Positions 15,945 through 60,613 are shown, counted from the whole stretch's first letter. The stretch: DNA of 63,707 nucleotides, filler included, from Folioceros fuciformis (GCA_049999805.1; 7 parts of 7 records of this genome joined end to end with filler, not necessarily neighbours in it); one strand, 5' to 3'. Numbers and translations: made by a program. Notes: a model not told the origin generated them from the letters alone.

Positions 15945-16760
15945 GCAGCTTTCTGGGCAGCGCGGGCAGACGCGAGGCAGCATAGGGCAGCCCTACTGCC
16001 TGCGCCTGCCCATTCTGCCCCGCACTTGCCCGCACTGCCTTGTTGCCCGTGCCTGCCCATTTTGCCCCGCGCCTGCCCACGCTGCCCTGCTACTCGCGCG
16101 CGCAGGCGCAGGGTAGAATGGGCAGGTGCGGGCAGCAGGGCAGTGCGTGGCAACGCTGTGGGCAAGCGGGCAGGTGCGAGGCAGAATGGGCAGGCTGAGG
16201 CAGCAGGGTAGCGAGGGCAGGTACGGGGCAGAATGGGCAAGCGTAGGCAGCAGGGCAATGCACGGCAGGCATGCGGTAATGTCGCGAGCAAGCAGGTCAG
16301 TGCGGGGCAGAATGGGCAGGCAATGGCAACAGCGCTGAGCAACGCCACAGGCATGCGGTAATGTCGCGAGCAAGCAGGTCGGTGCGGGGCAGAATGGGCA
16401 GGCAATGGCAACAGCGCTGAGCAACGCCACAGGCAAGCGGGCAAGCATGGGGTAGAATGGGCAGGCACACAGTAGCGCCGCGGGCAAGCAGGTAGGTGTA
16501 GGGCATAATGGGCAGGTGCGAGCAACGCTGCGGGCAAGCAGGCATGTGCGGGGCAGAATGAGCAGGCGCGGGCAACAGGGGCAGGCATGAGCAACAGGGG
16601 CGGGCACGGGCAGCAGGGGCAGGAGCGGGGCAGAATGGGCAGGTGCGGGGCATAATGGGCAAGTGCGGTCAATAGGGTAGCACGGGCAAGCGCGAGGCAG
16701 AATGGGCAGGCACCGGCAACAGGGTAGCGCGGGCAAGTGTAGGGCAGAATGGGTAGGCAC
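15945..16760. repeat. GC-rich degenerate satellite built on GGGCAGAATGGGCAGG, with an orientation switch near 16078
   Basis: Many copies of the core lie on the + strand from ~16090 to the gap. Reverse-complement copies (CTGCCCATTCTGCCC) lie at 15995-16070. Confidence 0.85.
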
Positions 16761-16860
16761 NNNNNNNNNNNNNNNNNNNNNNNNNNNNNNNNNNNNNNNN
16801 NNNNTTAATTAATTAANNNNNNNNNNNNNNNNNNNNNNNNNNNNNNNNNNNNNNNNNNNN
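16761..16860. other. Assembly join: 44 N + TTAATTAATTAA + 44 N (same spacer at 23802, 27170, 36905, 41585, 54126)
   Basis: An identical 12-mer that stops all six frames is centred in 100-nt N blocks at six places. Confidence 0.95.
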
Positions 16861-17074
16861 TAGATATGGCGCACAATAGGAAGGGGCTTGCTTTTCATCT
16901 TCGCTGCATATCGCAAGTAGAAATTTATAGCTAGCAAGGATCCAACTTGCCGGACACTCGGCGGTCGTGAGCACCCTTGGGTAATTCCGTCAACATTGGG
17001 AATTTACAAGGTGCCTTGGAGGACTTTTATTTTCAATCCTTTGAAGGAGTATATCTTTATATACTTTCTATAAA

Positions 17075-17215
17075 ATGTCTTCTCATGACTCCGTCAGTAA
17101 GCTGGTGAATTTCTTCGATGGCACCAACTACCCATCATGGAGTCATAAGATCGCCATGGAGTCATAAGATCGCTGCGCATTTTAATAGCCACGAGGTGTT
17201 ACCAATGGTTCTTGC
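17075..17215 (+). mobile_element. Ty1/copia gag N-terminal remnant
   Basis: MSSHDSVSKLVNFFDGTNYPSWSHKI matches the FDGxNYxxW copia gag start. It is disrupted by a 19-bp tandem duplication at 17136-17173. Confidence 0.55.
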
Positions 17216-17567
17216 AAATGGGTGCTGGGGGCGTATCCTTCACAGGTGAGGCTTAAGGAGATGATGAAAGAGGACGTGTGAGTTTGGGTGGAAGGCCACA
17301 AGGTGTGGCTGTCCAGTGATGAAGAACCAAGAGGGGTTCCTAGAAGGAGAGAGAACAATGGACAGTGGGAGTGAAGTGGAGGTGATATGGGAAGATCTTC
17401 CGAATGAGCGAAGCGGCAAGAGGGCTAGGGGAATTCCAAGGGACCAGAGGCTGAGACGATCGCAGCGGAGATGGGCACGCTAGTCTAGGATGCACACTAG
17501 GTCAGATTTTTATTAAAGGATAGTAAGCCAATGAATTCTGAACCAAGGATTGTTGACCTTAGGAGCG

Positions 17568-20500
17568 TGTCAGGAACGTGTAATCATTTCTTAAGACTCT
17601 AAAAGGCTGCGGCAATAATGGTGCCCCAAGGCCAGATATACAAGAGACCTTGCTGTGTCTCTCTCTAGAGACAATTTCAAGTGTGAGCTTCTGTGTGCTG
17701 ATTTTGTGCGCTGTGGGTTGGTAACATCTGATCGATGCAGCCTTGATGCGGCATGCTGTCCTCTCATCACAAGAGGACTAGGAAGNNNNNNNNNNNNNNN
17801 NNNNNNNNNNNNNNNNNNNNNNNNNNNNNNNNNNNNNNNNNNNNNNNNNNNNNNNNNNNNNNNNNNNNNNNNNNNNNNNNNNNNNCAAGCTCTACGACTG
17901 GGGTGGCAAGTGGAAGGGGTGCACCTGTGAGGAAGGGAGATTTCTGCAGAAGGTCAAGGTTGGAACGCGAGTTTCACAAAACCCTTGGAAAGCCGAGAAG
18001 GGATGTGAGTTTTGCAAAACTCTTGTGGAGCCGTTCGGCTGCGATTTTTCCCCTTCCTCACTTCACTGCCTAACCAGACCGTGTTCAATCCCAAGAAGGG
18101 GTTTGTGTGGCCCAAGGAGGAGGATTGAGTAAAGATTTGATGTAGGTGAAGTGTGAGTGCTGGGAATTGGGAAGTGTTGAGGAACATTGGTGATAGATTG
18201 AGTGGATAATCAGTGATAAGGTGAAGTGCCATAGTGTGGATGACCCTAATCTGCAGCTACTAGTGAGATCTAGGTGTAGAATAACATGAGAATGGCTGGG
18301 TGTGCATGAGAATCAGCCTGCACAGACCATAGCTCCTTAACAGACGTGGCCAAAAACCACATGACATCTAGGCGTCGCAACACACACATGCGCCAAATGG
18401 GTGGGTCCCACCACGGTGAAGGAATCCACTACCGTAGTGGCGGAACTCACTACAATGGCGGAGTCAGGTACAAGGGTGGTGGACTTAAGCACGGTGGTGG
18501 AATACGTCTAAGTAGGAACTGATTGTAGGAAGTCTAAAAGTCATAGATTTAGAACAACTTGACACAAACTATTTCCTTGGGATCAAATTCTAGGACTATA
18601 ACAACATATAGGGTGAATGTGGGCCTCATTGTGTCCCTAGACACAGAATTTCACACCACATTTTGGCGCCATTGCCAGAGAATGAACTGTTGTCAAGGTT
18701 GTAGGAAGGACTAACAGTAGCATTGTGTGTCTAGTGAGTGTGTTTAGTTTGGTAGATGGATGCCACGAATTGAGCCGAAGGATTCTGAGTCAAGATGTGA
18801 GGACCAGCTCCAAGCAAGGCAACAACGCCAAGCAGAGGAAAGGTTGTGAAGGGCTACAGACCGAGAGCTAAGAAGGACCTTATCCGAAGACACACTTATT
18901 GGAAGGGGAAGGGGAGTAAGGAATTGACCAAGGGTTGGGGGTCCAATCTTGTTGGAGCAAGATCCCCAAACTCTAGTCTTAGATGAGGTGCCATGGCCAA
19001 GGGACCTTGATCCAACCTTGCCTTCTGACCTTTTTTTCTGGGAGTGTGCAGATTGTTGTAGTCTAACCAACTCTCGTAGGCAATGTTGCTGGATCAACTA
19101 CGGTTGTCGAGTCAACCATGGTAGTCATGTCCACCACAGTACCGGTGGCTATCACCACTAAGCAACCTTACCCATTGTACAGGGAAGGGGTATGAGGATC
19201 ATGACGAGTTTGTTGAGCGTTTTGAGCAACTAACGATTGCAAAACAAGAGGCGGGCAACGCTTAGCGCATTCGTCTATTTTATGGAGTTCTTCGAGGTGG
19301 GCTAGCTAAGTGGTATATACGCGAGTATCTCAAGACAGCACCCCCCAATCACCTTTGAGGCATTGAAGGACACTTTCTAAGAGTGGTTTAGGGGAATTGA
19401 TGTGTAGGGCTATGTTTTGTCCAGACTTGAGAGGTTGCATCGAAAGAGGAAGGAAACCCTGTAAGCATATGTTGAGAGGTTTCACAGTTTGCGTGATCAT
19501 AGTGGTCCTCATTCAGAGCTGCAGGTCATACGGTGGTTTGCTAAGGGATTGGGTTCTAAAATGGGGAGGCATGTAAGGTTGCAAGCGCAGAAGAGTCTAG
19601 ACATAGCAATCAGGGCAGCATTGAATTATGAGGAATCCAACTTGCAGGAAATAAAGAGAACAAGGAGGGAGGAGAAGAAAACCAAGAAGAATAGAAGGAA
19701 GTTCCACAAATGGAACAAGAAGAAGGATTCCTCATCCTCCGTAGAAGAAAGCTTCACAGAAGGAAAGAACTCTTCAGAAGATGCTATAGGGGATTTCATG
19801 GAGGAAGAAATGAGTGATAGCTCGGAGGAAGGATCATCGGAAGAGGAGCGCACTAGAGGGAAAAAGAAGAAATCCAGAGGTGAAGTGGAAAATAAGAAAA
19901 GTTACGCACAGGAAAACAAGGAGTTGGTAAGGGCAAAACAAGAGGCCATGCATGCTAAGAAAGATGTGGAACAGGCAAGGAAGGAGGCTGAGATAGCAGC
20001 CAAGAAGGTGGAACAACAAGGAACCAGGTTGCAAGAGATGATGGAAAATTTTGAGAGATGCCATCTTAATGGAGTAAAGGAGTATGAGAGACACAGGGAT
20101 GTCACGAACGCACAGGCTAACCTCTTTCATTCCACATGTGGTCAGCAAGGGCACTCCAAGGCTAATTGTCGAACAACGAAAGTGCACTTGCTAGGCTATG
20201 AAGAGAGGAGGAGGAGAATTTTATGGAGGAATCATACCAGATTCAAGAGGTGCAGCCCAGCCAAGGGTATCCAAAACCCATGCATCCTTCTAGTAGAAAA
20301 ACCCGAATTGCAACCCTCAAATGAGGCCACGAAACGAAAAGCAGAAAAGTTAGGGTTTCCACGAGATGTGAGGAGGGAGGTTATGGAAATGATCCAGGAG
20401 GAGTTAGGGAAAATAGCCACGGTGGTGGAATCCGGGGTGCCCATTCCACTACCTCCCCACTAGATTCTGCCACCCTACCTGAGAGAGCCACCATTCCTTA

Positions 20501-21260
20501 GAGCACATCAGTGCCAGATCCTAGGACCAACCCTGGGGGGAAGGAACAGGCAAGTGCTCCTTTTGACCTAGCAAAGGCCATCATGGACTAGCGTTTCATG
20601 ATCACGTTTGGGTAACTTAGGGATAATCCACGGTATAGGCAATAGATAAGGAGGGCATTGAAGATGGCCCAGCCTAAGAAGCCTGCCTAAGCTAGGACTA
20701 ATGCCACTTCCTGTGAACTTGGTACCCATGGTAGATTAGGGCCCTGCTGAACTTCAGGTGGAGATTTCAAGATGTGTGATTAAAGAAGTACTACTTGATA
20801 TTAGTTCAGGTGTGAACATCATGACGGAAGAAACAGCCCAGAGATTGGGGTTGGAGATCGAACACACCTCAAAAGTTCTACGGTTAGTGAACATGTCCAT
20901 TATGACACCGATAAGGGAATTAACAGGGGTGTTAACAATTATTGGGACCATCCTCTATCTAATGGATTATATAGTCATTAAGTAGAAGGTGCTAAGGTAT
21001 GAGATTTTGATTGGACGAACCTGGATGTATGGGACGCGATGCACACTCAAGTGAGGTAGAAAGGACAAGGGATTCAAACTGTTGGATTGGGATCCGAAGG
21101 CTAAGGAAGAGCGAATTTGCGTATCCTGGAGTAGAGACAAGTATGCTGACGAGACCCCAACCGAACAAGTGGGTATACCTCAACGAAAAGCCCGGTAGGA
21201 GAGAAGGAGGAGGAAGATAAATTTCCATTCGCCCACATTTCTTGGTCTGAGGAGGAACAG
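17568..21260 (+). mobile_element. Degenerate Ty3/gypsy (Athila-like) LTR retrotransposon: putative 5' LTR, PBS, gag and aspartic protease
   Basis: A CA end at 18660 is followed by TTTTGGCGCCATTGCC, an Athila-type PBS. Gag-like DEFVERFEQL at ~19200 precedes the 324-aa ORF 19489-20463 with the degenerate knuckle HSTCGQQGHSKANC. The protease motif VLLDISSGVNIM is at ~20790. No RT or integrase was seen, and the LTR 5' boundary is tentative. Confidence 0.7.
18661..18678 (+). other. Primer-binding site (Athila/tRNA-Asp type)
   Basis: TTTTGGCGCCATTGCCAG follows ...CACCACA directly and has one mismatch to the TGGCGCCGTTGCC consensus. Confidence 0.65.
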
Positions 21261-24200
21261 GATTATCAAATGAACATTCCACACTCGATCAATTTAGTAC
21301 ACATTTTGCTGCAAGACGACAGTTGTCGGGTATGGGCAACAGCGTTCTCTACAGTATGCCAGATGGGCATGGAGGCAACCGAGTTTGTTACCCAGAAGGC
21401 TAGTCGCAACGCGATGGACGTCGTCCACCGCACAATCGGGAGACGGGTGAAGGTGGTAATTACCGTGAAGAACCCATGCAACAACTGGAAGGCAAATGTG
21501 GTTCTGCAGCACAATGTGTGCATGGAGGACGAGGGTGGGGGAGGCTTCTTGCCTGCAAACAAATGTTTTGTGGGAAGACCACGCATTGACATGCCAAACC
21601 TTCTGGCATGCCACCCGCCTTGCAATTGGAACAGGAGATGGGTTATGTTTGGGGGTGTTGTAGTGGCCTGCATACTGGTTGTCGTGGATCGCTACCATCC
21701 CACCCTCTGCGGTTGTGGCAATTACATTCATCTGAACCATTCTTGTCGTCGCATACACGTACACACAAGCTTTGTGAGGTGAGTCAAGGTTTCAAGTGGG
21801 TGAAAGAGTTGGGAGGGTAGGCATGAGGTGCTCATATGCAAGGTTGTAGATAACGTGCACGGGCTACCAGAAGCTCTGAGGCAGCCGTGAGTGAAGGTAG
21901 GGTGTATGCCTGGATGGGAGGATTCCCTAAATGAATAGTAGGAGGGGGGGGTTGTGAAGGGGTTTTGAGGTGTGCAAGATGGAGGTCGGCCATGTAGAAG
22001 TGTGCAACTTGGAAAATCAATGGCTTCCACTAGGAAAATGCAATGCAGCGCCCCAAATGAGGTTGGCATACTACCAGATGAGTGGTGCACATTTCATGGA
22101 GACATGAAGATGGTGGGCCGAAAACGGGGTTGTGGCATGCAAGATGGATCACCACGTTTATGGACGTGGATGTGGGGGTGGCATCCGGGTGGCAAGCTTG
22201 CAATTGTTCGCAGTGAGAGGTGCATGCAGTGGGCACCATGCAGTGGAAATTGCAAAGGGTGCAAAGCCCACGGGTTCGTGTGGGCATGAAGCATATGCAG
22301 CATAGAAGTCAAGAATGTATAGCTAGGACTTCAGTTAGATTCACGGCCCCTCATAGTGGAGTGTGAGCACAACATTGAGGTTTGGAGGGCAGGGTGGCCA
22401 GGTGTGCATGCTTGGGAGGGTGCGGGGCAGTAAGCAGGCGAGTGGGCGTCGTTGGTGCAGGCCCAGGGAGCAGCCGATGGTGGTGGGAAGCATATCACAG
22501 TGGCATGAAGGAGGGGATGCTAGAGGCTGCAACGGGAGGGGCGGTGGGCACCCTCTCAGCCCTCAACACTGCTGTAGGTGATGTTAAGGTTGTGACTGAT
22601 ATAGAGCCCATCGATAGCCTCACCATTGTGGTGTTCGAGGGGAATGGCGGCGCACATGGACACCTGTCTATGGGAGAGGCAGGGGGGAAAGAACATCTTC
22701 CCCCCCTGCAAGAGGAGGTAGGTGTTGGGGGGAAGAAGGATGAAAGCCCTGGCGTGGTTGGGTAGGGTGCAGAGCTTAGTGCATCCGACCAGCTCAAGTG
22801 AAAGCTAAGACTACGGTGGACGAAGACCCAAGCCCAAAAGTCATGGCCGAGATAGCAGCAGGCACTTGGAATTGGGCTATTGGGGACAGACTTTGAAAGG
22901 CCACGTATGGTGAAAATGGCCAATTCCAGCGGTGGAGGTACCTTGATGTGATTCAAAGCAACAGTTGAGTAGGAAGTTGGCCAGACCTAGTTGTGGAGGG
23001 GAAGAACGCCGTGTTCTGCAAATGGAGCTCGATGCGGTGGAGGAGAGTATTCCCAAACACACTGCAGGTGGCGGAGGAGGTCCCCGAGGGACCCTAGGCA
23101 ATGGTGCAAGTCAGGACGCACGGTGGGGTGGTGATGCAGATCGAAGTTCAGGGTCCAACATCCCGCCAATGAGGAGGGTGCGCAAGCGGTGGCACGAGCT
23201 CTCCTACTCTGAGGTGTATTCCTTTGGAGAGGAGGAGGATGAGACGCCTGTGCATCCATGGTGAGGTGCCGCGGCAGACAAGGGTGATACGCAACAAAAG
23301 GAGGTAGCAACTGAGGCAATGTCGCGAACACCCTAGTTGACACGGTGCATGCTTTGCACAACAGCCTAGGCTTGGTGGAGTCGTTGGAAGGTAATTTGCA
23401 CAAGTTGAGGGCAAACATACGTGACTATGCAGCACATGTGGAGGTTGCCTCTCGTGCTAGGGATTGCGAGGTTTAGGAATGCATGTGGCGTTGTGGGCAA
23501 GCGGGTATGGTATCCCTACCAGGCACCCGCTCACATGTATCTTGGCCACATCAATCCCACGGTCGTTGCAGGTTTCCCCGAAATCGCTCCCCTCTGAGTC
23601 TGGTTAGCTATGTCTATCGCTCCCCTACACTAGTCAACTCTCCCAACCACGTACCTACCAATCTGGCCACACGTCCCATCAATAGGTAGGCACCATTCCT
23701 TCACTTGGAAGGGCCCCAATACCTCCCCTACCGATTTCTACCTTCCAATCACGTTCCNNNNNNNNNNNNNNNNNNNNNNNNNNNNNNNNNNNNNNNNNNN
23801 NTTAATTAATTAANNNNNNNNNNNNNNNNNNNNNNNNNNNNNNNNNNNNNNNNNNNNTGCCATGATGATTTGCAGATAAAAAACCAACTTAAAATTGCAA
23901 CGATGCTTGTAGGGTTACCTGAAGGAGGCCTTGGTGAATATAGCAAAAGTGGTAAAACAAGGAGGATAAATATGGCAAACAAGGTCTTAGGACTTATGAT
24001 AGACTTGGAAGGAACAAGGGTAAGTAGTGAACAAGACTCCAGACAAGGCATGAAGGCTCCATGTAAGATTGCTTGCCTATCAAAAACGGCAGGCTTGTTG
24101 TTTGCTTAGCAAGAAGACATGAGACTCCATACAGGGTAGGAGGGTTACTATCTTGGCAAGAAGACTTCCTTCAAGAAAGCAACATGTTTGGTTTCAATGG

Positions 24201-26445: not shown

Positions 26446-28339
26446 CTGGGTAGAGCCACCTTCGATTAGACTTCACAAACCAAGCCCAAGATGGAGCATG
26501 ACGTAGACACAACACTAAATGGCACACTTGTGGATGGTGTGGGTGACAAGCAATCCACCTCCACCATTGATTCTTGGGTCGAGGTAACAGATCTTCTATA
26601 CGATTCAAAGTTTTTATGCTTGACAAAGGTGTTGGGTGGATTTTGTTGCTAGGTTAGCAGCTTTAGCTCAGTGCATGTCAGCAATTGAGGTTGCCAAAAT
26701 GGAAAACATTTTGAAATGCAAACACTTCTATTGAAGTATGATATGAAGAAACACAAGATGCAGTCGGAGAACCACCTACACATAGCTAGGGTTTTCGGAA
26801 AGCAGTCTCCAAAGAAAAGCAAGCATTAGAATGTGGACAAGTAGTAGCTAAACAATTCTATGTTCTTGCTGTGTGGAGTTGTTTTCTGTTACACACACTG
26901 TACTCCACAAAATTATATGGCTTCCCCCATGTAGGGAATTTTTCCAACTTTGAAATGAGGCTTGCCTCCTTGTTTTCACCTCACTGTGCATCTGCCTAAT
27001 AGATATATCATCCCACATATTCCTATTGTAGAGGCCATGTAAAGAAAATGGGTCGTCATCGACGTCACTAGCTTGGGCTGTGAAACATATATAGTCGTAT
27101 ATATATTTATTAAGCTACACTTGCTNNNNNNNNNNNNNNNNNNNNNNNNNNNNNNNNNNNNNNNNNNNNTTAATTAATTAANNNNNNNNNNNNNNNNNNN
27201 NNNNNNNNNNNNNNNNNNNNNNNNNACAAATGTGCCGCACGCCAGCACAATTGTTGCCAACCAAGGCTTCTTCCACATGACCAAATCCACACCGCCTTGG
27301 CATGTCATTCCGGTTCCTTCGCTTCCAGTGAAGAATTCCAAGAGACTTGAATCCTACGACGAGATCATCCCTGATACAGCATCACCAGCTTGGTGCTAAA
27401 TCAAATTCATCATCCTGCCTCTCCAGGGTTTGCCCTCGTCAACTGGACATATAGATCTGCAATCCGCCAAGCATCGGGCTCCGTCAGGATCACATAACTC
27501 CATCAACAGCTCATATCGCCACACTGCAACACAAATGCTCCGAAAACTCGTAAGGTAATGGATTCCGCAGCTTAGGATGCCGCTGAAGCTCTACTGCTGC
27601 GCGTGCTCGGGGCGAGCGTCCTATGCGTACTTTGGCTTTCTGTACTAACTCGCCAGGAAGGCACTCCGGCNNNNNNNNNNNNNNNNNNNNNNNNNNNNNN
27701 NNNNNNNNNNNNNNNNNNNNNNNNNNNNNNNNNNNNNNNNNNNNNNNNNNNNNNNNNNNNNNNNNNNNNNATCTCTCATTTCACAGTCCACAACCTCGAG
27801 CAGTCCTCTGGAAGTTTCACAGACATTCATCGTTTTAATCTTTTTTCGTTTCATCACTGCTTTCGTTCGTCACAGTCCACGAGCTGATTTAAACCTCGTC
27901 ACAGTGTACAGGCTTTTTCCGGACGATGGAAAGGGAAGGAAAGGAGTGGTAGTATCCGCTGTGAGCTGCACGTTCACTTGGGTGCCAACATTCAGGAGAT
28001 ACACTCGGGACAGGTATAGTGGGGTACACGGCCGCTCTTCAAAATCAGGCGGACAGGTCCATCGGAGGCACGGGTACCGTCCACGGCATGTGCGAAGCAC
28101 GATAAGGCTGCAGCAAGTGCTCCATGATTTTTCTCGACTGACAGTTGAGCCCACCAGGCCCGTCCATGGTGAGAAGAGAATCAGACTGTCATAGCTTGCC
28201 CATGTTGTCCGCTTGGAGTTTCCTTGACAGCAAGGAATGGGGTACTCACCAGCCTCTACTTTGCAAATGCACAAGGTTGGCATTGGAATCCTTCGCTGAT
28301 GCCGAGTTCCGGTGAGGGATTGGTCATGAGCACAGGGTC

Positions 28340-31300
28340 ATGGAATTCATAGACGAATGTCTCAAAGTGATAGGACGAGTAAACATCCTGGTGCACTATG
28401 ATCCCAATGTGAAAATCCTTCTCAATAGAAGGTTGTGCGAGCTGGTGGTCCTATTATACAATGTAGCAAGTATCCACTGCCTGCCAGTGTGGAAGAAATG
28501 CGAAGCCGCTATTCCGAAGTGCCAGCTAGCGCTTAAGGAGTTCTACAAGCAGCTGCTCCTTGGGGAAACCCTGGTTCAAAGCTCCAGTTCCAAGCACTTT
28601 TGGAAGCTCAGGAAGCTGGGAGGAGAACTTCAGTATCTGCACTCCTGTGACAGGTAATGTGATGGGAATGGGGAATGCCTATAATTTCGGGCTGCAGCTA
28701 CTTCCTTGGACTGGTGCTAAGCATGACATCTGTTTTGGCTGCAGCGCCTTGGATGGCTGGAAGACGGTGACCCCTTGGAAGGGGAAGCTTCCCCTACGGT
28801 GCGATCGACTGAAGCATCACGTGGAACTGGTCGATGAGAATGACCAGATATTTGTCAAGCACTCCTGTCTCTGTGTTGGTGGCTATGATGGGAAGAGCGT
28901 TCCTCTGCGATTCCGGGAGGGCAAAGTCATCAGTCTTCCTTGTATTAGTGATCACTGGTTGAAACTCTCGATTGTGGGGGCACCCCAAGGAGCGTTTGTT
29001 GTTCAGTTCCTTCTGGACTTATATTGGCACATTATACAAGTGAACAGGTCACTTCTTGCGAGTGCGAAGCACGAACAGTCTGCTCGTTCCAGGGCTTATC
29101 ACAGATGGCACATTCTAAGTTGTGGAGGCATTCTTTCTGACAAATACCATAAGTATCTTGCGGCGGAGCGTGAGAATGGTCTCGGCTCCTTTGAGAAGTG
29201 TCAAGAGGACTGTGAGCTGCTTTTGAAGAAACTTAAGTACATCGCTGATCAAGGTAGGCAACCGCAATTTCTAGTTCTTCGGCCGGTCATATGTTTAGTG
29301 TGTTTGTTGAAAGGCCCTGGACGTGTCGTTGTGGTCCCACTGTTGGTGAAACTCTATCTTTGCCCGTGCCCAGGTCCAAGAGTAGAGAGTTCAACACTCA
29401 CGAAGGAAGAAGAGCTTCACAATCACAGGCACGACATTGCAACTTTTGTTTTAAAACAGTTGGCCGATCGTTATGACGTTGCCGAGAGGTATAAGATATG
29501 TGATGATGGATGCGGCTCTCCGTCTGCACAGGATCTGTTGAGCAATAAAGTACGGCTGCCTCAGTATCTCAAGATTGACAAGAAGAAGTTAGATGACAGT
29601 GGTCTGACTTTTATTGCCCAAGGCTCCTCTTCATCCGTTTGGAGATGTGCATATCTCGGAGAAAGTTTGGCTGCAAAGAAATTTAAGGCTATGAGTTTCA
29701 GGGATATCTTCCCGAACGAGTTGGAAACCCTGTACAAGCTTAAGCACTTCCACATTGTTCAGCTGATTGGCTACAGTTACTTTGATTCCACTGATGATCA
29801 AGGAGGAAACAATCAATTGATACTTGAACTTATGTATCGGGATCTATCGAGATTTTTGAAAAATTCCACCAGTGGTGCACCGTTTCCTCTTCATGTGGCG
29901 GTTGATATATTACTTCAAATAGCTAGGGGAATGAAATACTCTCATGATAGTGGTGTAATGCATCGGGACCTGAAGGCTCGTAACATTCTGGTTAAGCGGA
30001 TTATGTCCAACGGCAACTCAGAAGTGAAGGATCTGTCTGATGACGGCTATTGCTATGTGAAACTGACAGATTTTGGCTTTGCCAAGAAGTACAGGGAAAC
30101 CACACCGATGACTAATGTTGGAACTAGTTACTGGAGGGCCCCTGAGGTGCTTGGCGATGTTACTCAAAACTACAGTAAACCAGCAGACGTCTACAGCTTT
30201 GCAGTCACTTGCTGTGAAGTCTTTGGAGGACAAACACCTGAGACGTGGATGGTGGCAGGGAACGCACGACTTCTCGATGATCTTCGGAAAGGTGTCAGAC
30301 CCTCTATTAATAATTGTCCAGCCTATTTGGTGGACTACATTGAGCGTTGCTGGGACACAGAACCTGGAAACAGACCCTCTTTCGTTGATATTTGCGTTGT
30401 GCTCCTCCACTACAAGAGTGTGCTTATGAAACCTGACTTTGACCCGAGTGCTGACTATCGGATTTCAACAGAGGAAGACATGATTGAACTCGCTTGTCAG
30501 GGCGGACTCAAGTGGTTAACAAGGGAGGTTTTGAACCATGGGATCGACACGGTAGATGTGGGTTCCAAGTATTCGAGGATACCCATGGACGTCTTCCTGG
30601 ACTGCCTCGTTAAATGGGAGTACCCTACGCCAATATCATCAGATGGTACGACACCACCAGCAAGCCTTTCAGCACGTAGTGCGAATTTGTCTGCTGGCGT
30701 GGAGCTTTCTCTTCAGGACTCCGCCGGTAGTTTGTTAGAAGGTTTCGAGAAGCTCTGTATAGTCCACTATGAGTGGCAGGATGTGCTTAAAGATCTCCCG
30801 GAAGCCTGGGTACATGTGGGAGACCACTATGCCTCGTGGGAAAAGAAAGATCATGACTTCGAAAATGCTCTAAAGTGGTTTAAGAAAGCTTCTAGGCATG
30901 GTCATCCAGATGGCTTCGTCAGGGTTGGAATGTGCTATCACTCTGGATATGGCACTGAGAGGAATTTGAAGTTAGCCATACAAAATTATGAAGAAGCGGC
31001 CACGAGGCACTCCGCAGAAGGGTACGTGTATCTGGGCCTTGCCTATGCGGAAGGCAACTTCAAAGAGAAGGGATTGGAGTTCTGGCAGAAGGTTGGTTTG
31101 ATTGAACCAGCCGTCTGGATGTCTTCTAGGAGAGACATATTTGTCATGACTGTTATGTTTTGCAGCCAGGCTGATGCTTGTTACTAACTTTTGTCCCTTC
31201 CTTCTTAACAGGCTATGGATTACCAGAACGCAAACAGAACAAGCATTCGAATCATCAAACTGTTCATCAACATCATGCTTTGCAGCGTCCTTGATTCGCA

Positions 31301-32018
31301 CAATGTGTACGAAAATGTTGTCAACAGGCTTTTGAAGATGACTGTGAAGGAAAACTCTATCGGCCGTAAGCTTGTTGCTGGTGCAGCTCCCAAGTATACC
31401 AACGTCAGGCTGGTCCTTGATGCTGTAAGGAAGGCGGCCGTGGACGACAAGCAGCGCGCAACCAAGCTCCTTCGAAACTTATCCACAGAGCCCGAGGTTG
31501 CAGAAAAGATAAGAGAAGCTGGAGGCGCCCAGGTGAGCTATCACCTGAACCACGAGACTTCGCTGCTGCTGCACCTGTGATTCCCTGCTCTCCGCTGTAT
31601 CGTATGTTTAGTTCAGGATTCTCAGGCCTCTTCTCTGTGGCAGGTGTTGAAAACTCTTGTGAAAGAGAGCTATGAGCCGGGCAGTAAAGTAGTTCCCAAA
31701 ATTCTTGTGGAAACATTTTGCAATGTTATCCCCGACCATAGCGAGCGGATGAACTGTCTTGAAAGTTTTCATCAGGACGATAGGGGGAACCTAACAACGG
31801 AGGAAATTCAGGATTTCCAGTCCAGGATCGAAAAACACCTGGACAGGCTTCTTCAGGAAAATGTGAAGTTAACAAACGGGGGAGTACAAGGGCTGGAGGG
31901 CATTGCAGCGGAGTGTGAAGCAGAAGTAGGATTGGATCCAGCGGTTCTTACTCCGGTAGAGGTTTTGCAGAATAGTCGAGCAGATGACGGAGTCGGAGCC
32001 GTGGCAATGGCAGACTAG
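28340..32018 (+). CDS. MLKL-like protein: N-terminal 4-helix bundle (HeLo-like), brace, TKL-type protein kinase, SEL1-like repeats, ARM-like tail; predicted 5 exons, ~1078 aa
   Basis: Predicted exons 28340-28653, 28745-29253, 29374-31091, 31212-31532 and 31644-32018 are joined by in-phase GT-AG introns (3237 nt total). Kinase motifs: AAKKF, HRDLKARNIL, DFG, GTSYWRAPE, DVYSFA. SEL1 motifs: ALKWFKKASRHGHPDGFVRVGMCYHSGYGTERNLKLAIQNYEEAA. The N-terminus LLNRRLCELVV...ALKEFYKQLLLGETLV resembles the plant MLKL N-terminal domain. Confidence 0.8.
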
Positions 32019-32391
32019 ACCTAGCCGGTTGTTTGTGCAGTAACACTCAGCGTTCTGTTGTAACAGGGACATACTCGTGGGTTGTGGGGTCTCCGAAACA
32101 GGATTTACAGGGCATTTAGACTACTGTGTGAGATTGAATCTGGACTTTTTCTTTTCAGAGCCTTCGAACCGGTACTTAGATGCGGTCAGTAAAGGGAAGA
32201 ATTAGTCTAACCTTTCGTGGACTCCAACAGAGTTCATCTTCATGGTGCAAGGATGAACTTAGACCGGACATAAGCAACCTGCTTGGCCCAGAACGGGAAG
32301 GATGCGGGGCTTACCACGGGCACATACGCATACATGTGATGGGATGCTTGAACGAGAAGGTTTTCAGTGCTTTCACGGTGCACAACAGAAC

Positions 32392-33405
32392 TCAGACTGC
32401 ACAAACCTCCGTGGCCCAGGACGGGAGCGGGGCGACCACGAGCACATCTCCAGATGTAATGGGATGCTTGAAAGAGAGACTCCCGGCATGAAGGCAATGG
32501 GCGTCGAACTTGATCCCATCGAACAGCTGAGGAAAAAAAAAAAAAAAAAAAACTACTAAAGGCAACCCCAAATAGAGACAGTGCAACCTGATTTGATGCG
32601 TCCTACCCGTCGATGGAAATGCTCTCACCAAAAATTTCTGCACATTCTGTGATGCACTGAAGTCTGGCAACCTACTTGCAGAAAAGTGTTCAGAAGTGTG
32701 TGCACGTTTCAAATCCTGCTGAGAGACAGCACAATCCCTTCCAGCAACCCGCAGCTCATGGTGGTCAGTTTCATCTTTCCAGTCGGAATTGCCACTGTCC
32801 CTGTCGCTGTCGCTGTCGCACCCCAGTGCTCCACTTACGACCGACCGCTGAAACTTTTCAGACACGCTTGAGAACAAAAATCTTGTTCTCATCTCTTTCA
32901 CCACCGATCCGCCCGGACCAGGAAGCCTCTTGCCAATGTCATCGGCAGAGTACACATGATAACTGCCAAACCGGGGCCTGCCATGTCCAGACGTGACAGT
33001 CACCGCCCTCCACGGTGGCTCCGCTCCGATACACAGCCCAACATAGCTCTTGGCCACTTTCTTCCTCGCAAAAAGTTGCCCGAGTTTCCCAGACGCTTCC
33101 CTGGACTTGGAGATGACCAGCACCCCACTGGTGTCTCGGTCGAGACGGTTCGCTAGATGGAGGCAGGCGGCATCTGCTGACTGCATCACCGAGGGTGCCG
33201 AGGCGAACACATGGCCAGTATACAGGCCACCAGGTTTGTTCACCACCAACAACCACTCGTCTTCATACAGAACGTCCTGCTTGGTGATGGCAGGGCCAGC
33301 CCGCATCGCCGCCTCAGCCACTAAGGCCCTTTGGTATTCCACCTCTCTGGCATCCTCAGAGTAGCAAGGCGTCAGAGGAAGGGGCAGGCACGGCAGGGAA
33401 GACAT
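32392..33405 (-). CDS. RNA pseudouridine synthase (RluA family, plant PUS1-like), intronless
   Basis: Contains LYEDEWLLVVNKPGG, the catalytic motif LANRLDRDTSGVLVI, TGRTHQIRLH and HCLHAGSLSFKHPITS. A poly-T run replaces the expected GDxxYG motif. Confidence 0.9.
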   Translation of the reverse strand: MSSLPCLPLPLTPCYSEDAREVEYQRALVAEAAMRAGPAITKQDVLYEDEWLLVVNKPGGLYTGHVFASAPSVMQSADAACLHLANRLDRDTSGVLVISKSREASGKLGQLFARKKVAKSYVGLCIGAEPPWRAVTVTSGHGRPRFGSYHVYSADDIGKRLPGPGGSVVKEMRTRFLFSSVSEKFQRSVVSGALGCDSDSDRDSGNSDWKDETDHHELRVAGRDCAVSQQDLKRAHTSEHFSASRLPDFSASQNVQKFLVRAFPSTGRTHQIRLHCLYLGLPLVVFFFFFFPQLFDGIKFDAHCLHAGSLSFKHPITSGDVLVVAPLPSWATEVCAV

Positions 33406-33640
33406 TCTGAGCCTCAGTGACCTGGGCTACCAACAGTGAGGCCACGGGAATTTGCCTCCACCCTCATCAAGGCTTTCCCAGCTCAGAGCACTGTCTCATT
33501 AATCTGCGTTCAAGATGACATCCTCATAGCAGACAACATCCCAGTCTATGAACCCCACTTTCCCATGTCGACCATTCTGTATTCCCTGGAAGATGGTATA
33601 CCGCCGCGCAAAACTTTCTGTCAAAAGACGGAGTGACCGT

Positions 33641-33679
33641 AATGGTATTCCACACTTCAGGTGAGTGTGGAATACCATT
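33641..33679. repeat. Perfect 16-bp inverted repeat with 7-nt loop
   Basis: AATGGTATTCCACACT-tcaggtg-AGTGTGGAATACCATT. Confidence 0.9.
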
Positions 33680-34559
33680 TTATATATGAGATAATAAAAA
33701 AATATTGATTTACATTTGTTTCAATATGACATAGACCTTGGCTTTATTACATGGATCACAAAGTAATATTTTATTATCCTTGCCCGAGTATGCACTCCCT
33801 GCTTCACCTCAACATACACGCAAAATTAATCCTCTTTTTCCAACTAATTTTCCAACATCATATCACTACATCTCTAATTGCAAGCCACGTTGAACCTGCT
33901 TCCAAGTAAATCTGGACAAAAGCCCTAAACCCCTACGCGGCATGTTAAACCGCTTCGCCATGGAGAGATGACACGTAGACGCTCACCGTGAGGTGTAACC
34001 TAGGTTACATGCGGGGTATAGGCTGCAGGCATGACGGTCCAGGGTAGTGCGTCGCCTGCTGGTTTTACTAGGAGAATGGTCGACTGCAACCAAGGGTACT
34101 TTTGGAACGTGTCTTAACCAAAAACGTGTTGGATTCAGAACACAGTCTGCAGTAAGTTGCAGTGTCATTCACCAGTCATCGCAGTTGTGAATCTGAACGG
34201 ACGATAGAATGGCAGCGCAACAACCTTGAGCTGCTTTCACGACTCATGGCAATCCTTGTACACCACATAGCCGACAAGGACTCGTAGCTGGTTTAACAGA
34301 CCTAACACACCTCCTTAAACATCAGTGCACATGTCACAGATTGGATCTGCTCGGTTGTGCAACGCTTTCCAGTGCGTTGTGCATGCTGCGTTGCGCATGC
34401 AGGTTTGAGAGACTACAAATTGATGCAACGGAGGTGCAGACGAACTGATGTAACAGAGGTGCAGACGCTCTCTGGCAGAGAAGTTGGAGGATTGTTTAGG
34501 TCGTAGTTTGGAATTCGGTGTGAGAAGTGTGGACGCATATCGCTTACTAGAACGCAAGA

Positions 34560-35504
34560 ATGCTGCACCATTTACTTCGTGGGACTTTGCCGGCGGTGGC
34601 CTTGAGGAGGAGCTTGCCGTCGCCGAACGGAGGGAGTGCTAGACTCCTTCTTTTCGCACGGGTAAAGTTGAGCTTCAATTCACTATGTATGTTGTTTCAG
34701 ACTTTGTGGAGGATTTTGGTTAGGAGAGAGAGGATACTGGCGGCAACGTGAGAGGCAGGGTGGGACAGTGTCTTGCCTCTCAGTCTGACGTCGTTGTGTT
34801 GATCCTGCAACAGGCAATGTGCTCACGGGTGGGATCAGGGAGCGGGGGCCGCGTTGGAGGACCGAATGTGAGGCCGCCACCTGAGATCCCCTACTCAGTG
34901 AAAGGCCTCAGGCATATTGCGATTGCTGTTCCGGATGTTGTTGCGGCTGGTGAGCATTACCGGACGGCTTTTGGAGCCCGAGTCAGTGATCCTCAGGTTG
35001 AAATTCTCTCGTCTGCAAGCGATCACCACATCGAGTCCTATCGGAGAACGTGCTGAGGTTGAGCATTGTTTCTGTTGTTTGCTGCTGCAGCCAATCCCTG
35101 ACCATGGAGTCACCACAGTCTTCGTGATTTTGGGGAATTTTCATATTGAGCTGTTACAGCCGCTGGGAGATGATGGCAAAGGTCCGATCTCCAGGTTTCT
35201 GGAGAAGAACCCGAAGGGCGGCCTCCACCACCTATGTTTCGCGGTATGTTTTGGTTTGGTGCTTCTGAGCTCAGAGATGTGACCTTGTAGTCCTCCCTTC
35301 ACTTCCAACGTGCTGTTGTAACTTGCACTTCGTTTTCAGGTGGACGATTTGAACTCAGCTGTCGATCATCTTAGTGCACTAGGCATCTCGAGTTTGGGTG
35401 ATGGCAAGCCGAAGATCGGAGCAGAGGGGGACCCTGTCCTGTTCCTTCATCCCAAGGATACTATGGGTGTGCTCACGGAATTGCAACAGGTGGACCCTAA
35501 ATAG
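34560..35504 (+). CDS. MCEE: Methylmalonyl-CoA epimerase (VOC/glyoxalase fold) with mitochondrial-type presequence; 4 exons, 200 aa
   Basis: Exons are 34560-34661, 34814-34996, 35091-35243 and 35340-35504. Motifs LRHIAIAVPD, PDHGVTTVFVILGNFHIELLQPLG, FLEKNPKGGLHHLCF and KIGAEGDPVLFLHPKDTMGVLTELQQ match the MCEE consensus, and the N-terminus is Arg/Leu/Ser-rich. Confidence 0.9.
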
Positions 35505-35851
35505 TACTGCACAAGGAGCTTCGTCTATTCGAGGTCGCATCCGTTTGACCCTGACTTGTGGGAAAAGGCCTACTGGAATTTGAGCACGGGATTGAGAACG
35601 GGACTCCTGGCAATCTCTAGTATAGATCGGCATTCATCTGCTGCAGGGCTAGAACGAGGATGAGCAAGGCCATGCACGCCACTTGGATGTAGGTGGTCTT
35701 TCTGTTTCTTTCTGGATGATGTTGGTCTTTGATAAGTCGAGTAACAGTGGAGTAAGTTCTGTACATGTTTATGCCAGAGGTTTTACTTCATAACCGTTTC
35801 TCTTCGCGATCTTACTTCACAAACCGTTTTGTAGTTTCATACCTTTCTGTA

Positions 35852-36729
35852 TCATGATTTGCATAATTTGCGAGCGGTGCTTAAACATCTGCTTTGCCTG
35901 CGCTCTAAATCCTGTATCTCAGCCTTCAACCAAGTTGAATGGTCGCGATAAGAATTCAAATTCGGTATCTTCCCAGCAGATACGCCATCGACAGTAGGCT
36001 CCATGGGATGGTCAAGTGACTAAAAGGGCATACAAATCAAATTGTTAGAGTGTGTTGTACAACATACTAATGGAACTTTAGGGTTCAGAGCTTAAGGAAA
36101 TGGTTGCTCACCATATCCCAGCAACATTAGTGTGACCCTATAGTACTCACCCATTTTATGCCCTGTGCCAGAGCGAGCTGAACTTCTAACTCCCTCACCC
36201 GCACAAGAAGTTGATGCTGACTTACTGTTAGGTTTGCCTCAAGTTTGTAGGCCTGGTTCAATTTCTGCTGGGCAAGCACACGGTCAGTGAAAAGATGATC
36301 CCGTACCACAGTGATCTTGAAAAGGGCTTCGTCACAGTTTACAACCACACAACAGGCGTAGAGCCGGCAATTGCGGCCTACGGGAATACCGCGTTGCATG
36401 GCTTAAGTCAACCTTTTTCAAGGAGTGGACTTCGTGGATAAGTTTCTTTCTGCCTTCTTTGACATTACTGACTTCCCTTTTCACAAGGGCGTTCTTCTCA
36501 GCATCCCAGTTGCGCTGTACGTGAAGGCAACTAACAACGGTGAGGATTCTGCCCATGCCCGAAGGTTGCTGTGATGTGATGGTGTGAGGTGATAAATTGC
36601 TGTTGCATACCTGTGCTTCGTCCATTAAACGAGACTGATTCATCAGATCCTTGGACCTCAAGGCATTAAGTTCCTCAATCTCAATTTTCATCCTTCCCAA
36701 TTTCCGCTGAAGCTCACCAATTGTGCTCC
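35852..36729 (-). CDS. 3' exons of a coiled-coil protein of unknown function; 5' end lost in the gap
   Basis: Spliceable heptad-rich segments: STIGELQRKLGRMKIEIEELNALRSKD, RNWDAEKNALVKREV, QKLNQAYKLEANL and LKAEIQDLERRQSRCLSTARKLCKS*. Confidence 0.55.
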
Positions 36730-36960
36730 TACACAGGAGGTACCAAATTTGGCAGTAAGAAAACAACGCTCCTGACTGAATGAAGTGAAGGGCAGGACAT
36801 TTGAATTCACCCAACGAACTTATTATCAGCTGTTCGACTATGCGTCTCTTGATACTTATTNNNNNNNNNNNNNNNNNNNNNNNNNNNNNNNNNNNNNNNN
36901 NNNNTTAATTAATTAANNNNNNNNNNNNNNNNNNNNNNNNNNNNNNNNNNNNNNNNNNNN

Positions 36961-52300: not shown

Positions 52301-52670
52301 CCCCGAAGGTAACGGGACCTGCGCGCCAGCTTCCATCCTCCCGTTCTCTATCCTATCCGCTGCTTCATGGCAGGCAGAAGCGGTCCCGGGCAATCGCGCA
52401 TCAGCGCGATCACCTTGCCCACCCAGGATATCCTCCCCGCTGCCCTCGTCCTGCGACCTGCTTGCGGTTGCTAAAATGGATTTTCCTCCTTCTCCTTCTC
52501 CTTCTCCTCCTATTCCTAGTCCTAGTCCTAGTCCTAGTGCGGCTCCCCCCTCTCTAGTCCCAGAACTGCCCGACGTAGCCAACCCAAGAACGGCGTCACC
52601 TGCGTCGCGAGACACACCACAGCCAACCAGGCCCCGGACGGCCTCAAACCCTGCTGTTCCAGCAACATCC

Positions 52671-52705
<35 letters not shown>

Positions 52706-53257
52706 GAATTCCCTGCACAGCCTGCTCACTGGAGAAGCGTTCTTCCCGCACATGTCCACTAAAACAGGATAGCTGCTGGGATCGAAAGCGTCCAACAACG
52801 ATCCACCATCGTCCCGGATTTCATGATAAGCAGAAACTGCACGGGGCTGTCTCACGTTAGAGGGCGGAGTCCTGGGGTGCTCTCGGAAACGGAAGGGCTC
52901 GGAGGCATAGCGGTCGAAGGCCGCTCCCGGAGCTGCTCCATTACTGCCGGCACGGAAGTCCTCGGCAGCACCAGCATCATGGTCCGGCCCGGAGGCAGCC
53001 TCCTCCCCGTCCTGCTCTCCGTCTAAGTCCCCGCTGGATCCCTCGCCGGTCTCTCCAAAACCCTGAAACTCCTGCTCCACCTCCTCCTCTTGATCATCGC
53101 CGCCGCTCTCGTCTGCGGAGTCCAGGACCTTGAAGAGGGTATCCACGCTGCTGGAGGTGTCGTCATCCTTGGTAGTCCCCTGGTAGGCGCCATCGTCGTC
53201 GGCATTGTCGTCGGACTGATCCCCGCGCTCGGGCCCGTCGTCCATAGGGTCATCCAT
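43311..53257 (-). CDS. ASHH2: Histone H3K36 methyltransferase of the ASHH2/SDG8/EFS type (CW, AWS, SET, post-SET and an SRI-like C-terminus)
   Basis: CW domain [14 protein letters not shown]...[93 protein letters not shown] and [10 protein letters not shown]; post-[16 protein letters not shown]. The start is set at the first in-frame ATG (53257); stop at 43311-43313. Confidence 0.9.
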
Positions 53258-59899: not shown

Positions 59900-60613
59900 C
59901 GAGGAAACTAGTCAAAACACCGCTAATCTGCTCCACAACAGACAGCTCACACCAGCACACAATTGCTGCTGGAATCGATCGCAAAGCATGCCGAATCAGC
60001 TTTCTGACTTCCCCTTCACCCGCAAAATGTCACAGGTGTGTCAAATATGCGGGCCTGACAAGCAAATCATTGCCAACAGTCGGTTTGCGCTTCGTGCACT
60101 CATAACCTAATTCCATGTATCCACTTGTGCGTTGCCATCTTCAGTTCCCCAGCCAGACTGCTACTGCCTCCCATTCCCTGGAGCCTGGTCAACTGTGTTT
60201 CACAAAATTCCCGCAGGAGAACTTGACGAATCACTCCACACTCTTATGCGAAGAGAGCTAAGGCCACACCAAGAAACTCCTGTTCCGCCATAAGTCAAGG
60301 TCACAACTCCACACGACTGTGCATCCACAGAGCTAAACACTCTACAACTGCTATTGTGATCTCGTCTGTGTTCGTCACCATCACTCACTCGCTCACAAGC
60401 CCAACTGCGAGACCTTGACCAGCAGCGGGTGAACATAAGCAGACAAGTAACCTCACTAACTTTCGTCACATTTACGAGTTTAGGACCTCAATAGCTCACA
60501 CTTAAGAAATATTAATCGTTAAAGAGCTCAGCTTCCGAGAGCACTGCATATTGCTATTGCCGGCCACCGCACCGAACAGCTGGATCTGAACGAGCGAAGA
60601 GAGGTGGGGCAGG

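Follow-up and report, generated by a model that had tools for sequence, protein, structure and literature searches.

A five-exon gene of Folioceros fuciformis for a putative MLKL-type head–kinase protein with Sel1 repeats

According to the part of the preprint by Mahdi et al. available to us, plant MLKLs are built from a HeLo bundle, a brace of five helices, a pseudokinase without the phosphoryl-transfer residues and a Ser-rich tail; 48 seed plants were surveyed there, head plus brace was enough for cytotoxicity, and AtMLKL immunity was separable from cell death (10.1101/681015). Here we describe a gene in a 63,707-nucleotide stretch of DNA from Folioceros fuciformis (GCA_049999805.1), the whole of which is called the window below. 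The gene lies at 28340..32018 on the plus strand, as do all of its features given below, and encodes a protein of 1078 amino acids. With a probability of about 0.55, this protein belongs to the family that joins a HeLo/MLKL_N/DUF1221-type head and a brace to a tyrosine kinase-like (TKL)-type kinase and that includes the plant MLKLs. It would then carry three lineage-specific additions: ~125 residues inserted into the head, between helix 3 and what is likely helix 4; three Sel1 repeats, which follow a partly Ser-rich linker; and a ~220-residue tail.

Plant MLKLs are known as seed-plant pseudokinase executors, and the combination of a four-helix bundle (4HB) with an active kinase has so far been studied in cereal resistance genes. 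Pm13, as described in the accessible part of its paper, combines an MLKL_NTD, a brace and a kinase of the RLK/Pelle LRR_8B subfamily in which every key catalytic residue is present; the same source counts 714 MLKL_NTD-kinase proteins and puts forward cell-death execution by the head as a proposal only (PMC10951266). R3AK is presented, in the portion of the preprint at hand, as a 4HB-kinase helper that carries out cell death and that turns auto-active on substitution of its catalytic lysines (10.64898/2026.08.07.743466). That portion also cites Pm13 as a direct cell-death executor, divides monocot MLKLs into six clades of independent origins, with no catalytic residues in any member of clade 1 (DUF1221), and credits AtMLKL2 with forming a calcium channel (10.64898/2026.08.07.743466). 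MLKL-type proteins were reported from all tested plant lineages, including bryophytes and algae, in the part of Chia et al. that we could consult (PMC11218826).

The window protein can be compared with these systems domain by domain. With Arabidopsis MLKL1-3 (DUF1221 clade; 6KA4, 6LBA), it has in common a layout of helical head, further helices, kinase and partly Ser-rich stretch. The Arabidopsis proteins are pseudokinases, whereas the window protein keeps the Lys, HRD and DFG; in addition, its head lacks a DUF1221 or MLKL_N match and contains the ~125-residue insertion, and its C-terminus is made up of Sel1 repeats and a long tail in place of just a Ser-rich region. Measured against a strict definition of plant MLKLs, it has the homologous kinase-like domain but neither the loss of the phosphoryl-transfer residues nor a Ser-rich, domain-free C-terminus, and because its kinase retains those residues we did not file it as a strict plant MLKL. 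A broader definition of 4HB-kinase proteins relies on annotations such as MLKL_NTD, MCAfunc, Cbl-N or DUF1221, none of which was found in the exon products, though the family context speaks for such a head; Pfam scans and structure models were run on unspliced products throughout, and the head is split by intron 1 and the insertion.

Pm13 and R3AK join a 4HB head via a brace to a kinase with intact motifs, and the logic proposed for them, a kinase switch and a bundle executor, is the same as that considered here, as far as the consulted parts of the two reports go; those parts report no Sel1 repeats, tail or head insertion (PMC10951266; 10.64898/2026.08.07.743466). Since the Pm13 kinase was assigned there to RLK/Pelle LRR_8B and the window kinase is of the plant-MLKL/TKL kind, the two would represent separate fusions. 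Among named relatives, MLKL_N-kinase proteins of Sphagnum (P0002, P0007, P0011, P0014 and their kin; P numbers refer to database proteins) are the nearest; their catalytic motifs are intact, and their heads are weakly alignable with residues 24-89 of the window protein. They are ~530 aa long, stop shortly after the kinase and have neither insertion nor Sel1 repeats nor tail; unlike the window head, their heads score at or close to the MLKL_N cut-off of Pfam. Animal MLKL has the head-brace-kinase-fold layout in common with the window protein, and its head goes by the same name, MLKL_N, as those of the window protein's relatives; it is a RIPK3-activated pseudokinase, whereas the window kinase looks active. 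On the C-terminal side, the Sel1-repeat proteins 6ok3_A and 8sxq_A show the same kind of helical-hairpin repeats, and in the Sel1-kinase proteins P0023 and P0024 the Sel1 repeats precede the kinase and are accompanied by ankyrin or leucine-rich repeats.

The first-pass annotation of this DNA had suggested an undescribed receptor/executor class. As 4HB heads with intact-motif kinases are already in print (Pm13 and R3AK, in the parts of those reports cited above), the gene does not represent a new receptor class, and what is new in it, within the literature searched, is the Sel1-plus-tail extension and the head insertion, the rest belonging to a known family. That search returned no Sel1-bearing MLKL-type kinase and nothing on active-kinase bryophyte MLKLs, although supplements (Mahdi Table S1, the Pm13 list of 714 proteins and the NLRtracker sets) may list such proteins.

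A transcribed gene of five exons

Four plus-strand stop-to-stop open pieces cover the locus (28316-28657; 28530-31187, 885 aa; 31209-31580; and 31581-32018), and GT..AG introns placed from the DNA gave two in-phase models, one with the exon 2 acceptor at 28949 (1010 aa) and one with the acceptor at 28745 (1078 aa). The choice between them was settled by a transcript contig of 4351 nt (contig 2 of the public run X1), which matches the window with zero letter differences and skips 28654-28744, 29254-29373, 31092-31211 and 31533-31643. All four skipped stretches are bounded by GT..AG, and the contig carries the corresponding joints 28653|28745, 29253|29374, 31091|31212 and 31532|31644. The 1010-aa model was rejected: it is in phase, but the contig carries the 28745 joint instead. 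We therefore describe the gene as follows. Exon 1 (28340..28653) begins with the ATG at 28340, encodes residues 1-104 and contributes two bases to codon 105; intron 1 (28654..28744) has 91 nt; exon 2 (28745..29253) encodes residues 105-274; intron 2 (29254..29373) has 120 nt; exon 3 (29374..31091) encodes the end of the brace, the kinase, a linker and most of the Sel1 repeats; intron 3 (31092..31211) has 120 nt; exon 4 (31212..31532) encodes residues 848-954; intron 4 (31533..31643) has 111 nt; and exon 5 (31644..32018) encodes residues 955-1078 and ends with a TAG stop at 32016-32018. Joined in phase, the five exons give 3237 nt, that is, 1078 amino acids and a stop.

The gene is thus real and transcribed in five exons. 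The expectation of the first-pass annotation that four open reading frames (ORFs) would splice in phase into ~1078 aa was borne out by this open five-exon frame, and the contig, whose RNA type was guessed, shows all four of the joints that had been proposed for confirmation by RNA sequencing. It links the 3' end of exon 1 with exons 2-5 in one molecule, so that exon 1, the kinase and the Sel1/tail exons are in the same transcript. The transcript evidence comes from a single public run of one study (X1), which holds 0.86 of the sampled words and whose type is given only as a guess ('RNA?'), and contigs of this kind show neither strand nor transcript ends. Two further runs, X2 and X3, gave no contigs placed on the gene region.

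Upstream of the gene's start, the reading frame is interrupted by a TGA (28313-28315), which makes the ATG at 28340 the first in-frame start. The only relative found for exon 1, a 113-aa ORF (P0087; 78% identical), begins at the same Met. The region upstream of the start, 27771..28339, is also transcribed: another X1 contig (contig 1; 2679 nt, depth 46 vs 27 for the contig of the gene) runs unspliced over 27771-28591 and continues for 1858 nt upstream beyond an assembly gap. This transcript is either a very long 5' untranslated region or another, overlapping transcript. An 8-codon out-of-frame upstream ORF (ATG 28326) overlaps the main start.

Several features of the introns may be recorded separately. 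The lengths of introns 2-4 (120, 120 and 111 nt) are all multiples of three, and intron 2 contains no in-frame stop, so its retention would add 40 residues to the brace and leave the frame unbroken. An in-phase AG acceptor at 28947-28949 would drop 68 residues of the insertion, as in the 1010-aa model, and was unused in the one contig seen.

The kinase domain, the C-terminal repeats and their relatives

The protein kinase domain occupies residues 346-625 (29586..30425). The exon 3 product matched Pkinase at 1.5e-37 in the Pfam scan, and the protein falls within the protein kinase superfamily (PF00069/PF07714) as a TKL-like member. In an alignment of 27 rows, the window protein keeps K376 (VAIK), the alpha-C residue E390, H471-R472-D473, N478, D507-F508-G509 and A530-P531-E532. 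As every catalytic residue is kept, ATP binding and phosphate transfer are probable, and we lean towards an active kinase. The glycine loop reads A356-x-G358-x-x-S361 (AxGxxS rather than GxGxxG), in which only the middle Gly is kept, and the same loop is present in the best relative, P0001. The first-pass description of the kinase as apparently active is therefore reasonable, the Lys, HRD, DFG and APE motifs all being present, but the glycine loop is atypical and activity itself unproven.

A sequence search of the exon 3 product against solved structures returned 2067 matched sequences, with 6lba_A at the top (1.2e-29, 106.4 bits), an entry titled 'Protein kinase family protein' that we take to be the cryo-EM structure of AtMLKL2. 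At the places matching K, HRD and DFG of the window protein, this sequence has R, HGD and GFG. MLK1 came next (4.3e-26, 94.7 bits), and 6ka4_A (9.5e-24, 86.9 bits) and RIPK1 (~2.7e-23, 85.5 bits) also matched; 6ka4 is AtMLKL3 according to the available part of the Mahdi preprint (10.1101/681015). Foldseek and VIA-align searches with the exon 3 model found generic kinase domains and no plant MLKL structures among the matches listed, a result with no bearing on the brace.

A word-based search with exon 3 retrieved 86 proteins at E <= 1e-3 among 8000 scored candidates. The best relative, P0001 (525 aa), is 51% identical over 535 columns and has the kinase, the linker and the Sel1 repeats in common with the window protein; the alignment reaches the last residues of the exon, and P0001 stops at the same 'WQK' as exon 3. 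The next relatives are proteins of ~530 aa, several of them named from Sphagnum, with 39-42% identity over the covered part, that is, the kinase. Precomputed Pfam annotation of the 21 best database hits places MLKL_N in five and DUF1221 in one. Our own Pfam scan of nine relatives likewise found MLKL_N in five, of which P0002 (34.1 bits), P0003 (28.2) and P0014 (28.1) exceeded the 27-bit cut-off and P0007 (24.5) and P0010 (19.7) fell short of it, and DUF1221 in one (P0005, 71.7 bits).

A quick maximum-likelihood tree was built from 54 kinase domains, those of the window protein and of 53 proteins whose kinase match covered at least 200 of 281 positions. The window protein and P0001 were paired, with a Shimodaira–Hasegawa-like approximate likelihood ratio test (SH-aLRT) value of 99, inside a 21-row group (SH-aLRT 88) whose other members are the full set of 18 helical-head relatives and a Sphagnum protein that is truncated. 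Outside the group fall MAP3K13, ACK, FAK, bacterial kinases and P0023; P0024 is not in the tree. Combined with 6lba_A as the top solved match, the position of the window kinase inside the helical-head group shows, at the level of sequence comparison, that the kinase is akin to plant MLKLs, in line with the kinship that the first-pass annotation had proposed.

Two observations concern the relatives themselves. First, the VAIK Lys is replaced by Ala (AIAIM) in a subfamily of five head-kinase proteins (P0017-P0021) that retain HRD and DFG, which suggests that loss of a catalytic residue has also occurred among non-seed-plant-like relatives. Second, head and kinase are repeated in P0002, two kinase domains are present in P0003, and P0005 has a second DUF1221-like region after the kinase; from these layouts the head-kinase family seems prone to domain shuffling.

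The kinase is followed by a linker (residues 626-748; 30426..30794), in which blocks conserved with P0001 flank a Ser-rich middle (11% Ser) and which AlphaFold2 (AF2) modelled with a pLDDT value (predicted local distance difference test) below 50. Three Sel1 repeats then occupy residues ~749-856 (30795..31238), a stretch that spans intron 3. Pfam Sel1 (PF08238) matched the exon 3 product in two stretches at 31.4 bits (cut-off 30.7) and a longer read-through ORF at 29.7 bits, and it matched P0001 at 48.8 bits; the solved Sel1 protein 6ok3_A matched in three stretches (2.9e-25). The AF2 model of the region has six helices with pLDDT 71-93, which argues for three repeats, the last extending into exon 4. 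Profile, solved-structure match and predicted model thus agree on membership in the Sel1 repeat family, and the earlier proposal of two to three SEL1-like repeats at ~30805-31091 stands, with three repeats over a somewhat longer interval and a profile score above the curated cut-off.

The C-terminal tail (residues 857-1078, ~220 aa; 31239..32015) matched no family at curated cut-offs. Pfam found no repeat family in the exon 4 or exon 5 product, which were searched as separate exons, and the motif previously likened to armadillo (ARM) repeats, a putative resemblance, straddles the junction of the two. In the solved-structure search, the exon 4 product gave 0 matches and the exon 5 product one at E 0.19. 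A search with the linker and Sel1 region returned P0089, which was rejected as an unrelated Sel1 protein; the same search missed P0001, which shows that the word-based search overlooks relatives. As far as these sequence searches go, the architecture appears rare, since one partial relative was found for exon 3 (P0001) and one for exon 1 (P0087).

The head, its insertion and the genomic surroundings

Residues 1-85 (28340..28594) contain candidate helices 1-3 of a HeLo/MLKL_N-type bundle, as suggested by AF2, a family profile and hhalign. The profile was built from the heads of 18 of the 20 relatives P0002-P0021, with P0008 and P0016 excluded as truncated or partial. Window residues 1-330 scored 14.4 bits on it, compared with a best of 8.5 in 2000 shuffles, and residues 9-89 were aligned with profile positions 13-95; residues 1-104 alone scored 15.4 bits, matched by none of 500 shuffles. 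Six further profiles, five leaving out one subfamily each and one made from a Sphagnum-type subfamily alone, gave the window head 7.2-13.8 bits and rank 1-2 outside the training set, the Sphagnum family protein P0016 being set aside. Certified members scored 9.7-11.6 (P0005), 8.2-11.3 (P0003), 4.5-7.2 (Sphagnum type) and 1.9-4.5 bits (P0017 type) when left out, and unrelated stored proteins reached at most 5.3 bits, so that the window head is level with certified left-out members. With hhalign, exon 1 plus P0087 against the whole family gave a probability of 49% and P 1.7e-4 (residues 25-89 vs 24-89); in the controls, four comparisons of certified subfamilies with the Sphagnum type gave P 7e-4 to 0.32, and the reversed query gave 0.095-0.25.

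The AF2 model of exon 1, made from two sequences, has helices at 2-17, 22-46 and 48-73. A fold search with this model, which is too weak for such a search, returned generic helical matches only, and a prediction of the exon 1 and exon 2 products as a two-chain complex scored 0.00, the partner's own fold being uncertain. Candidate helix 4 and the brace helices fall in residues 218-345 (29082..29585, spanning intron 2), where the evidence consists of a weak profile signal and AF2: residues 227-270 were aligned with the end of the family's helix 4 and its first brace helix, and a helix was predicted at 285-308, ahead of the kinase. The brace-like helices with 'DCELLLKKL' and 'DIATFVLKQL' named in the earlier description do exist, the second being the predicted helix 285-308. 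One candidate for helix 4, 'HWLKLSIVGAPQG..', was discarded; it was based on by-eye likeness to P0005, and the profile aligns residues 227-270 instead.

The first-pass assignment of an MLKL HeLo/4HB N-terminus is therefore supported indirectly, by a weak remote homology over residues 9-89; it fares less well in that Pfam gives no match and part of the bundle then proposed falls within the insertion. Overall, a HeLo-type bundle interrupted by an insertion is the probable structure of the head.

A different view would make the same protein an ordinary MLK/Raf-like signalling kinase of the TKL group, whose N-terminal helices would serve regulation or dimerisation instead of forming a membrane-acting bundle and whose Sel1 repeats and tail would be scaffolds for partners outside immunity, for instance in stress or development. 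The scores of the human MLK1 and RIPK1 kinases, which nearly equal those of the plant MLKLs, would suit such a protein, as would a head with no Pfam family and weak profile similarity, the occurrence of Sel1 repeats as general protein-binding modules next to kinases in unrelated architectures (P0023, P0024), and, within the available text of the Mahdi preprint, the separability of AtMLKL immunity from cell death (10.1101/681015). Yet the window kinase nests with relatives that all bear helical heads, and, whichever subfamily was left out of the profile, its own head came first or close to first among the rows not used for training. Language-model comparison also points away from this view, since the neighbours of exon 1 are HeLo-like fungal clusters (PigL_N, SesA) and an MLKL_N cluster, at scores of only 0.85-0.87, which serve as leads only. 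We regard the signalling-kinase explanation as unlikely but as the most serious competitor of the MLKL-type assignment.

The insertion was placed at residues ~90-217 (28607..29081, spanning intron 1) and is absent from the heads of the relatives. The reference point is a conserved Trp after helix 3: the helix-4/brace elements follow ~140 residues after it in the window protein and within ~30 in the relatives, which is why the stretch between was read as inserted. Residues 86-175 showed no signal on the family head profile (-1.0 bits, reached by 74 of 500 shuffles). 'HWLKLSI..QFLLDLYWHI' (residues 175-209), formerly counted as part of the bundle, lies inside the insertion, has no likeness to the helical heads of the relatives and is unlikely to be a helix of the bundle. 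For the exon 2 product, the word-based search returned no relatives and the solved-structure search one match at E 0.3. The ten best family-bearing language-model neighbours of this product, a lead only, belong to one clan (0.88-0.90), and the families listed (Fascin, FRG1, RicinB_lectin_2, FGF and Inhibitor_I66) are presumably all beta-trefoil folds. The insertion is possibly beta-rich.

These features raise the alternative of a new composite N-terminal domain that is not HeLo, composed of three helices, a beta-rich and possibly trefoil-like, ligand-binding module of ~125 residues, and more helices, with a merely generic likeness to MLKL_N. The strands predicted at 76-103 are the best-confidence part of the exon 1 model, and together with the one-clan neighbours and the silence of residues 86-175 on the family profile they agree with a domain of this kind. 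The neighbour scores are leads only, though, since one in three shuffled proteins shows the same ten-of-ten clan agreement and the recognition value is low (1760); Pfam found no beta-trefoil match in the exon 2 product, and an internal threefold repeat in residues 76-220 was not significant (317, 647 and 745 of 1000 shuffles reached the observed scores). A bundle formed by the flanking helices is compatible with an insertion, and the composite domain appears distinctly improbable beside a HeLo-type bundle that has been interrupted.

The window is a concatenation, with six linkers (44 N, TTAATTAATTAA, 44 N; starting at 16761, 23758, 27126, 36861, 41541 and 54082) and seven 100-N runs within 12368-57642 that look like assembly gaps. 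Since it was stitched from separate pieces, adjacency across the linkers is meaningless. The gene lies wholly within the piece 27226-36860, and the nearest linker (27126-27225) and the nearest 100-N gap (27671-27770) are both upstream of the ATG; the earlier statement that the gene was assembled across an artificial join is therefore withdrawn. An assembly or annotation artefact, or a pseudogene whose pieces do not form one functional gene, is very improbable and already largely refuted, for although the window is concatenated and a 100-N gap is found upstream, 570 nt from the ATG, no join or gap falls inside 28340-32018, one contig with canonical introns and no mismatches connects exons 2-5 with the 3' end of exon 1, the frame is open for 1078 codons, and exons 1 and 3 are conserved at the protein level in relatives (78% and 51%).

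The transposon island said to lie beside the gene is on other joined pieces, so its adjacency to the gene is artificial. Two minus-strand ORFs on other pieces, both typical of plant genomes, are one for a hAT-type transposase (57836-59911; DUF659 4.7e-40, hAT dimerisation 5.8e-07) and one of 1068 aa (50084-53290) with a weak zf-CW match at its end. The convergent neighbour of the gene (32392-33426, minus strand) encodes an RNA pseudouridine synthase (PseudoU_synth_2, 4.8e-18). As the contig of the spliced transcript extends past 32700 into this neighbour, the two genes may overlap at their 3' ends. A direct repeat of ~119 bp with 72% identity (32239-32357/32372-32477) is situated between the stop of the gene and the neighbour. 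Self-comparison of 27771-32700 against the window found no second copy of the gene. Within 16001-24000, about 8 kb across several joined pieces, GC skew is steadily positive (0.19-0.24) and AT skew is positive too, and the 4 kb after 24000 have a low GC content (0.38-0.41).

Family membership, a possible mechanism and its meaning

The assignment to the head-brace-kinase family has to be set against a number of results that tell against it. At the N-terminus, Pfam gave no family at E up to 10 for the exon 1 or exon 2 product, the exon 1 profile had 0 matches among solved structures, animal MLKL included, and a HMMER search of exon 1 against 1.84 billion proteins found one true relative only, the 113-aa P0087 (a second match, P0088, was rejected as spurious because it consisted of a single low-complexity repeat matched in seven stretches). 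Remote homology is limited to small scores over residues 9-89, the helix-4/brace signal of residues 170-275 amounts to only 3.5 bits (reached by 5 of 500 shuffles), the bundle is interrupted by ~125 residues, and AF2 modelled exon 1 with low confidence (pLDDT 56) and with strands after residue 76. In the kinase, the first and third Gly of the glycine loop are missing, so that activity is not assured, 6lba_A is only ~12 bits ahead of MLK1, and the 21-row group has just SH-aLRT 88 from a quick search without bootstraps. Furthermore, the sole RNA evidence is one run of guessed type, and no data here bear directly on immunity, cell death or membranes.

As a probable member of this family, the window protein most likely works as other members do, with added partner-binding modules, and AtMLKLs, Pm13 and R3AK serve as the analogy from which a course of action can be proposed. 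In the resting state, the kinase and brace may keep the head inactive. The Sel1 repeats and tail could bind a partner or a pathogen-derived cue, upon which the nucleotide state or (auto)phosphorylation of the kinase would switch the protein to an oligomer, and the head of this oligomer would act on membranes and lead to ion flux or cell death. We infer the head fold, the catalytic activity, the immune role and the order of events in this scheme, and an action of the protein in immunity or cell death, suggested by that analogy, is tentative.

A bolder version would make the protein a single-chain sensor, switch and executor of a non-seed plant, in which a membrane-acting HeLo bundle carries a beta-rich, trefoil-like binding module in the loop between helices 3 and 4, a live kinase of the MLKL clade acts as the switch, and a C-terminal Sel1/ARM-like solenoid senses a ligand or a guarded partner. 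We consider this a long shot. If true, it would amount to an immune receptor architecture that is independent of nucleotide-binding leucine-rich repeat receptors (NLRs) and limited to one lineage.

The gene suggests that the pseudokinase state of seed-plant MLKLs may be derived and that the MLKL family may have been remodelled by domain addition, as NLRs and kinase fusion proteins have been. It also offers a concrete construct for the question of whether kinase activity gates the HeLo head outside flowering plants.

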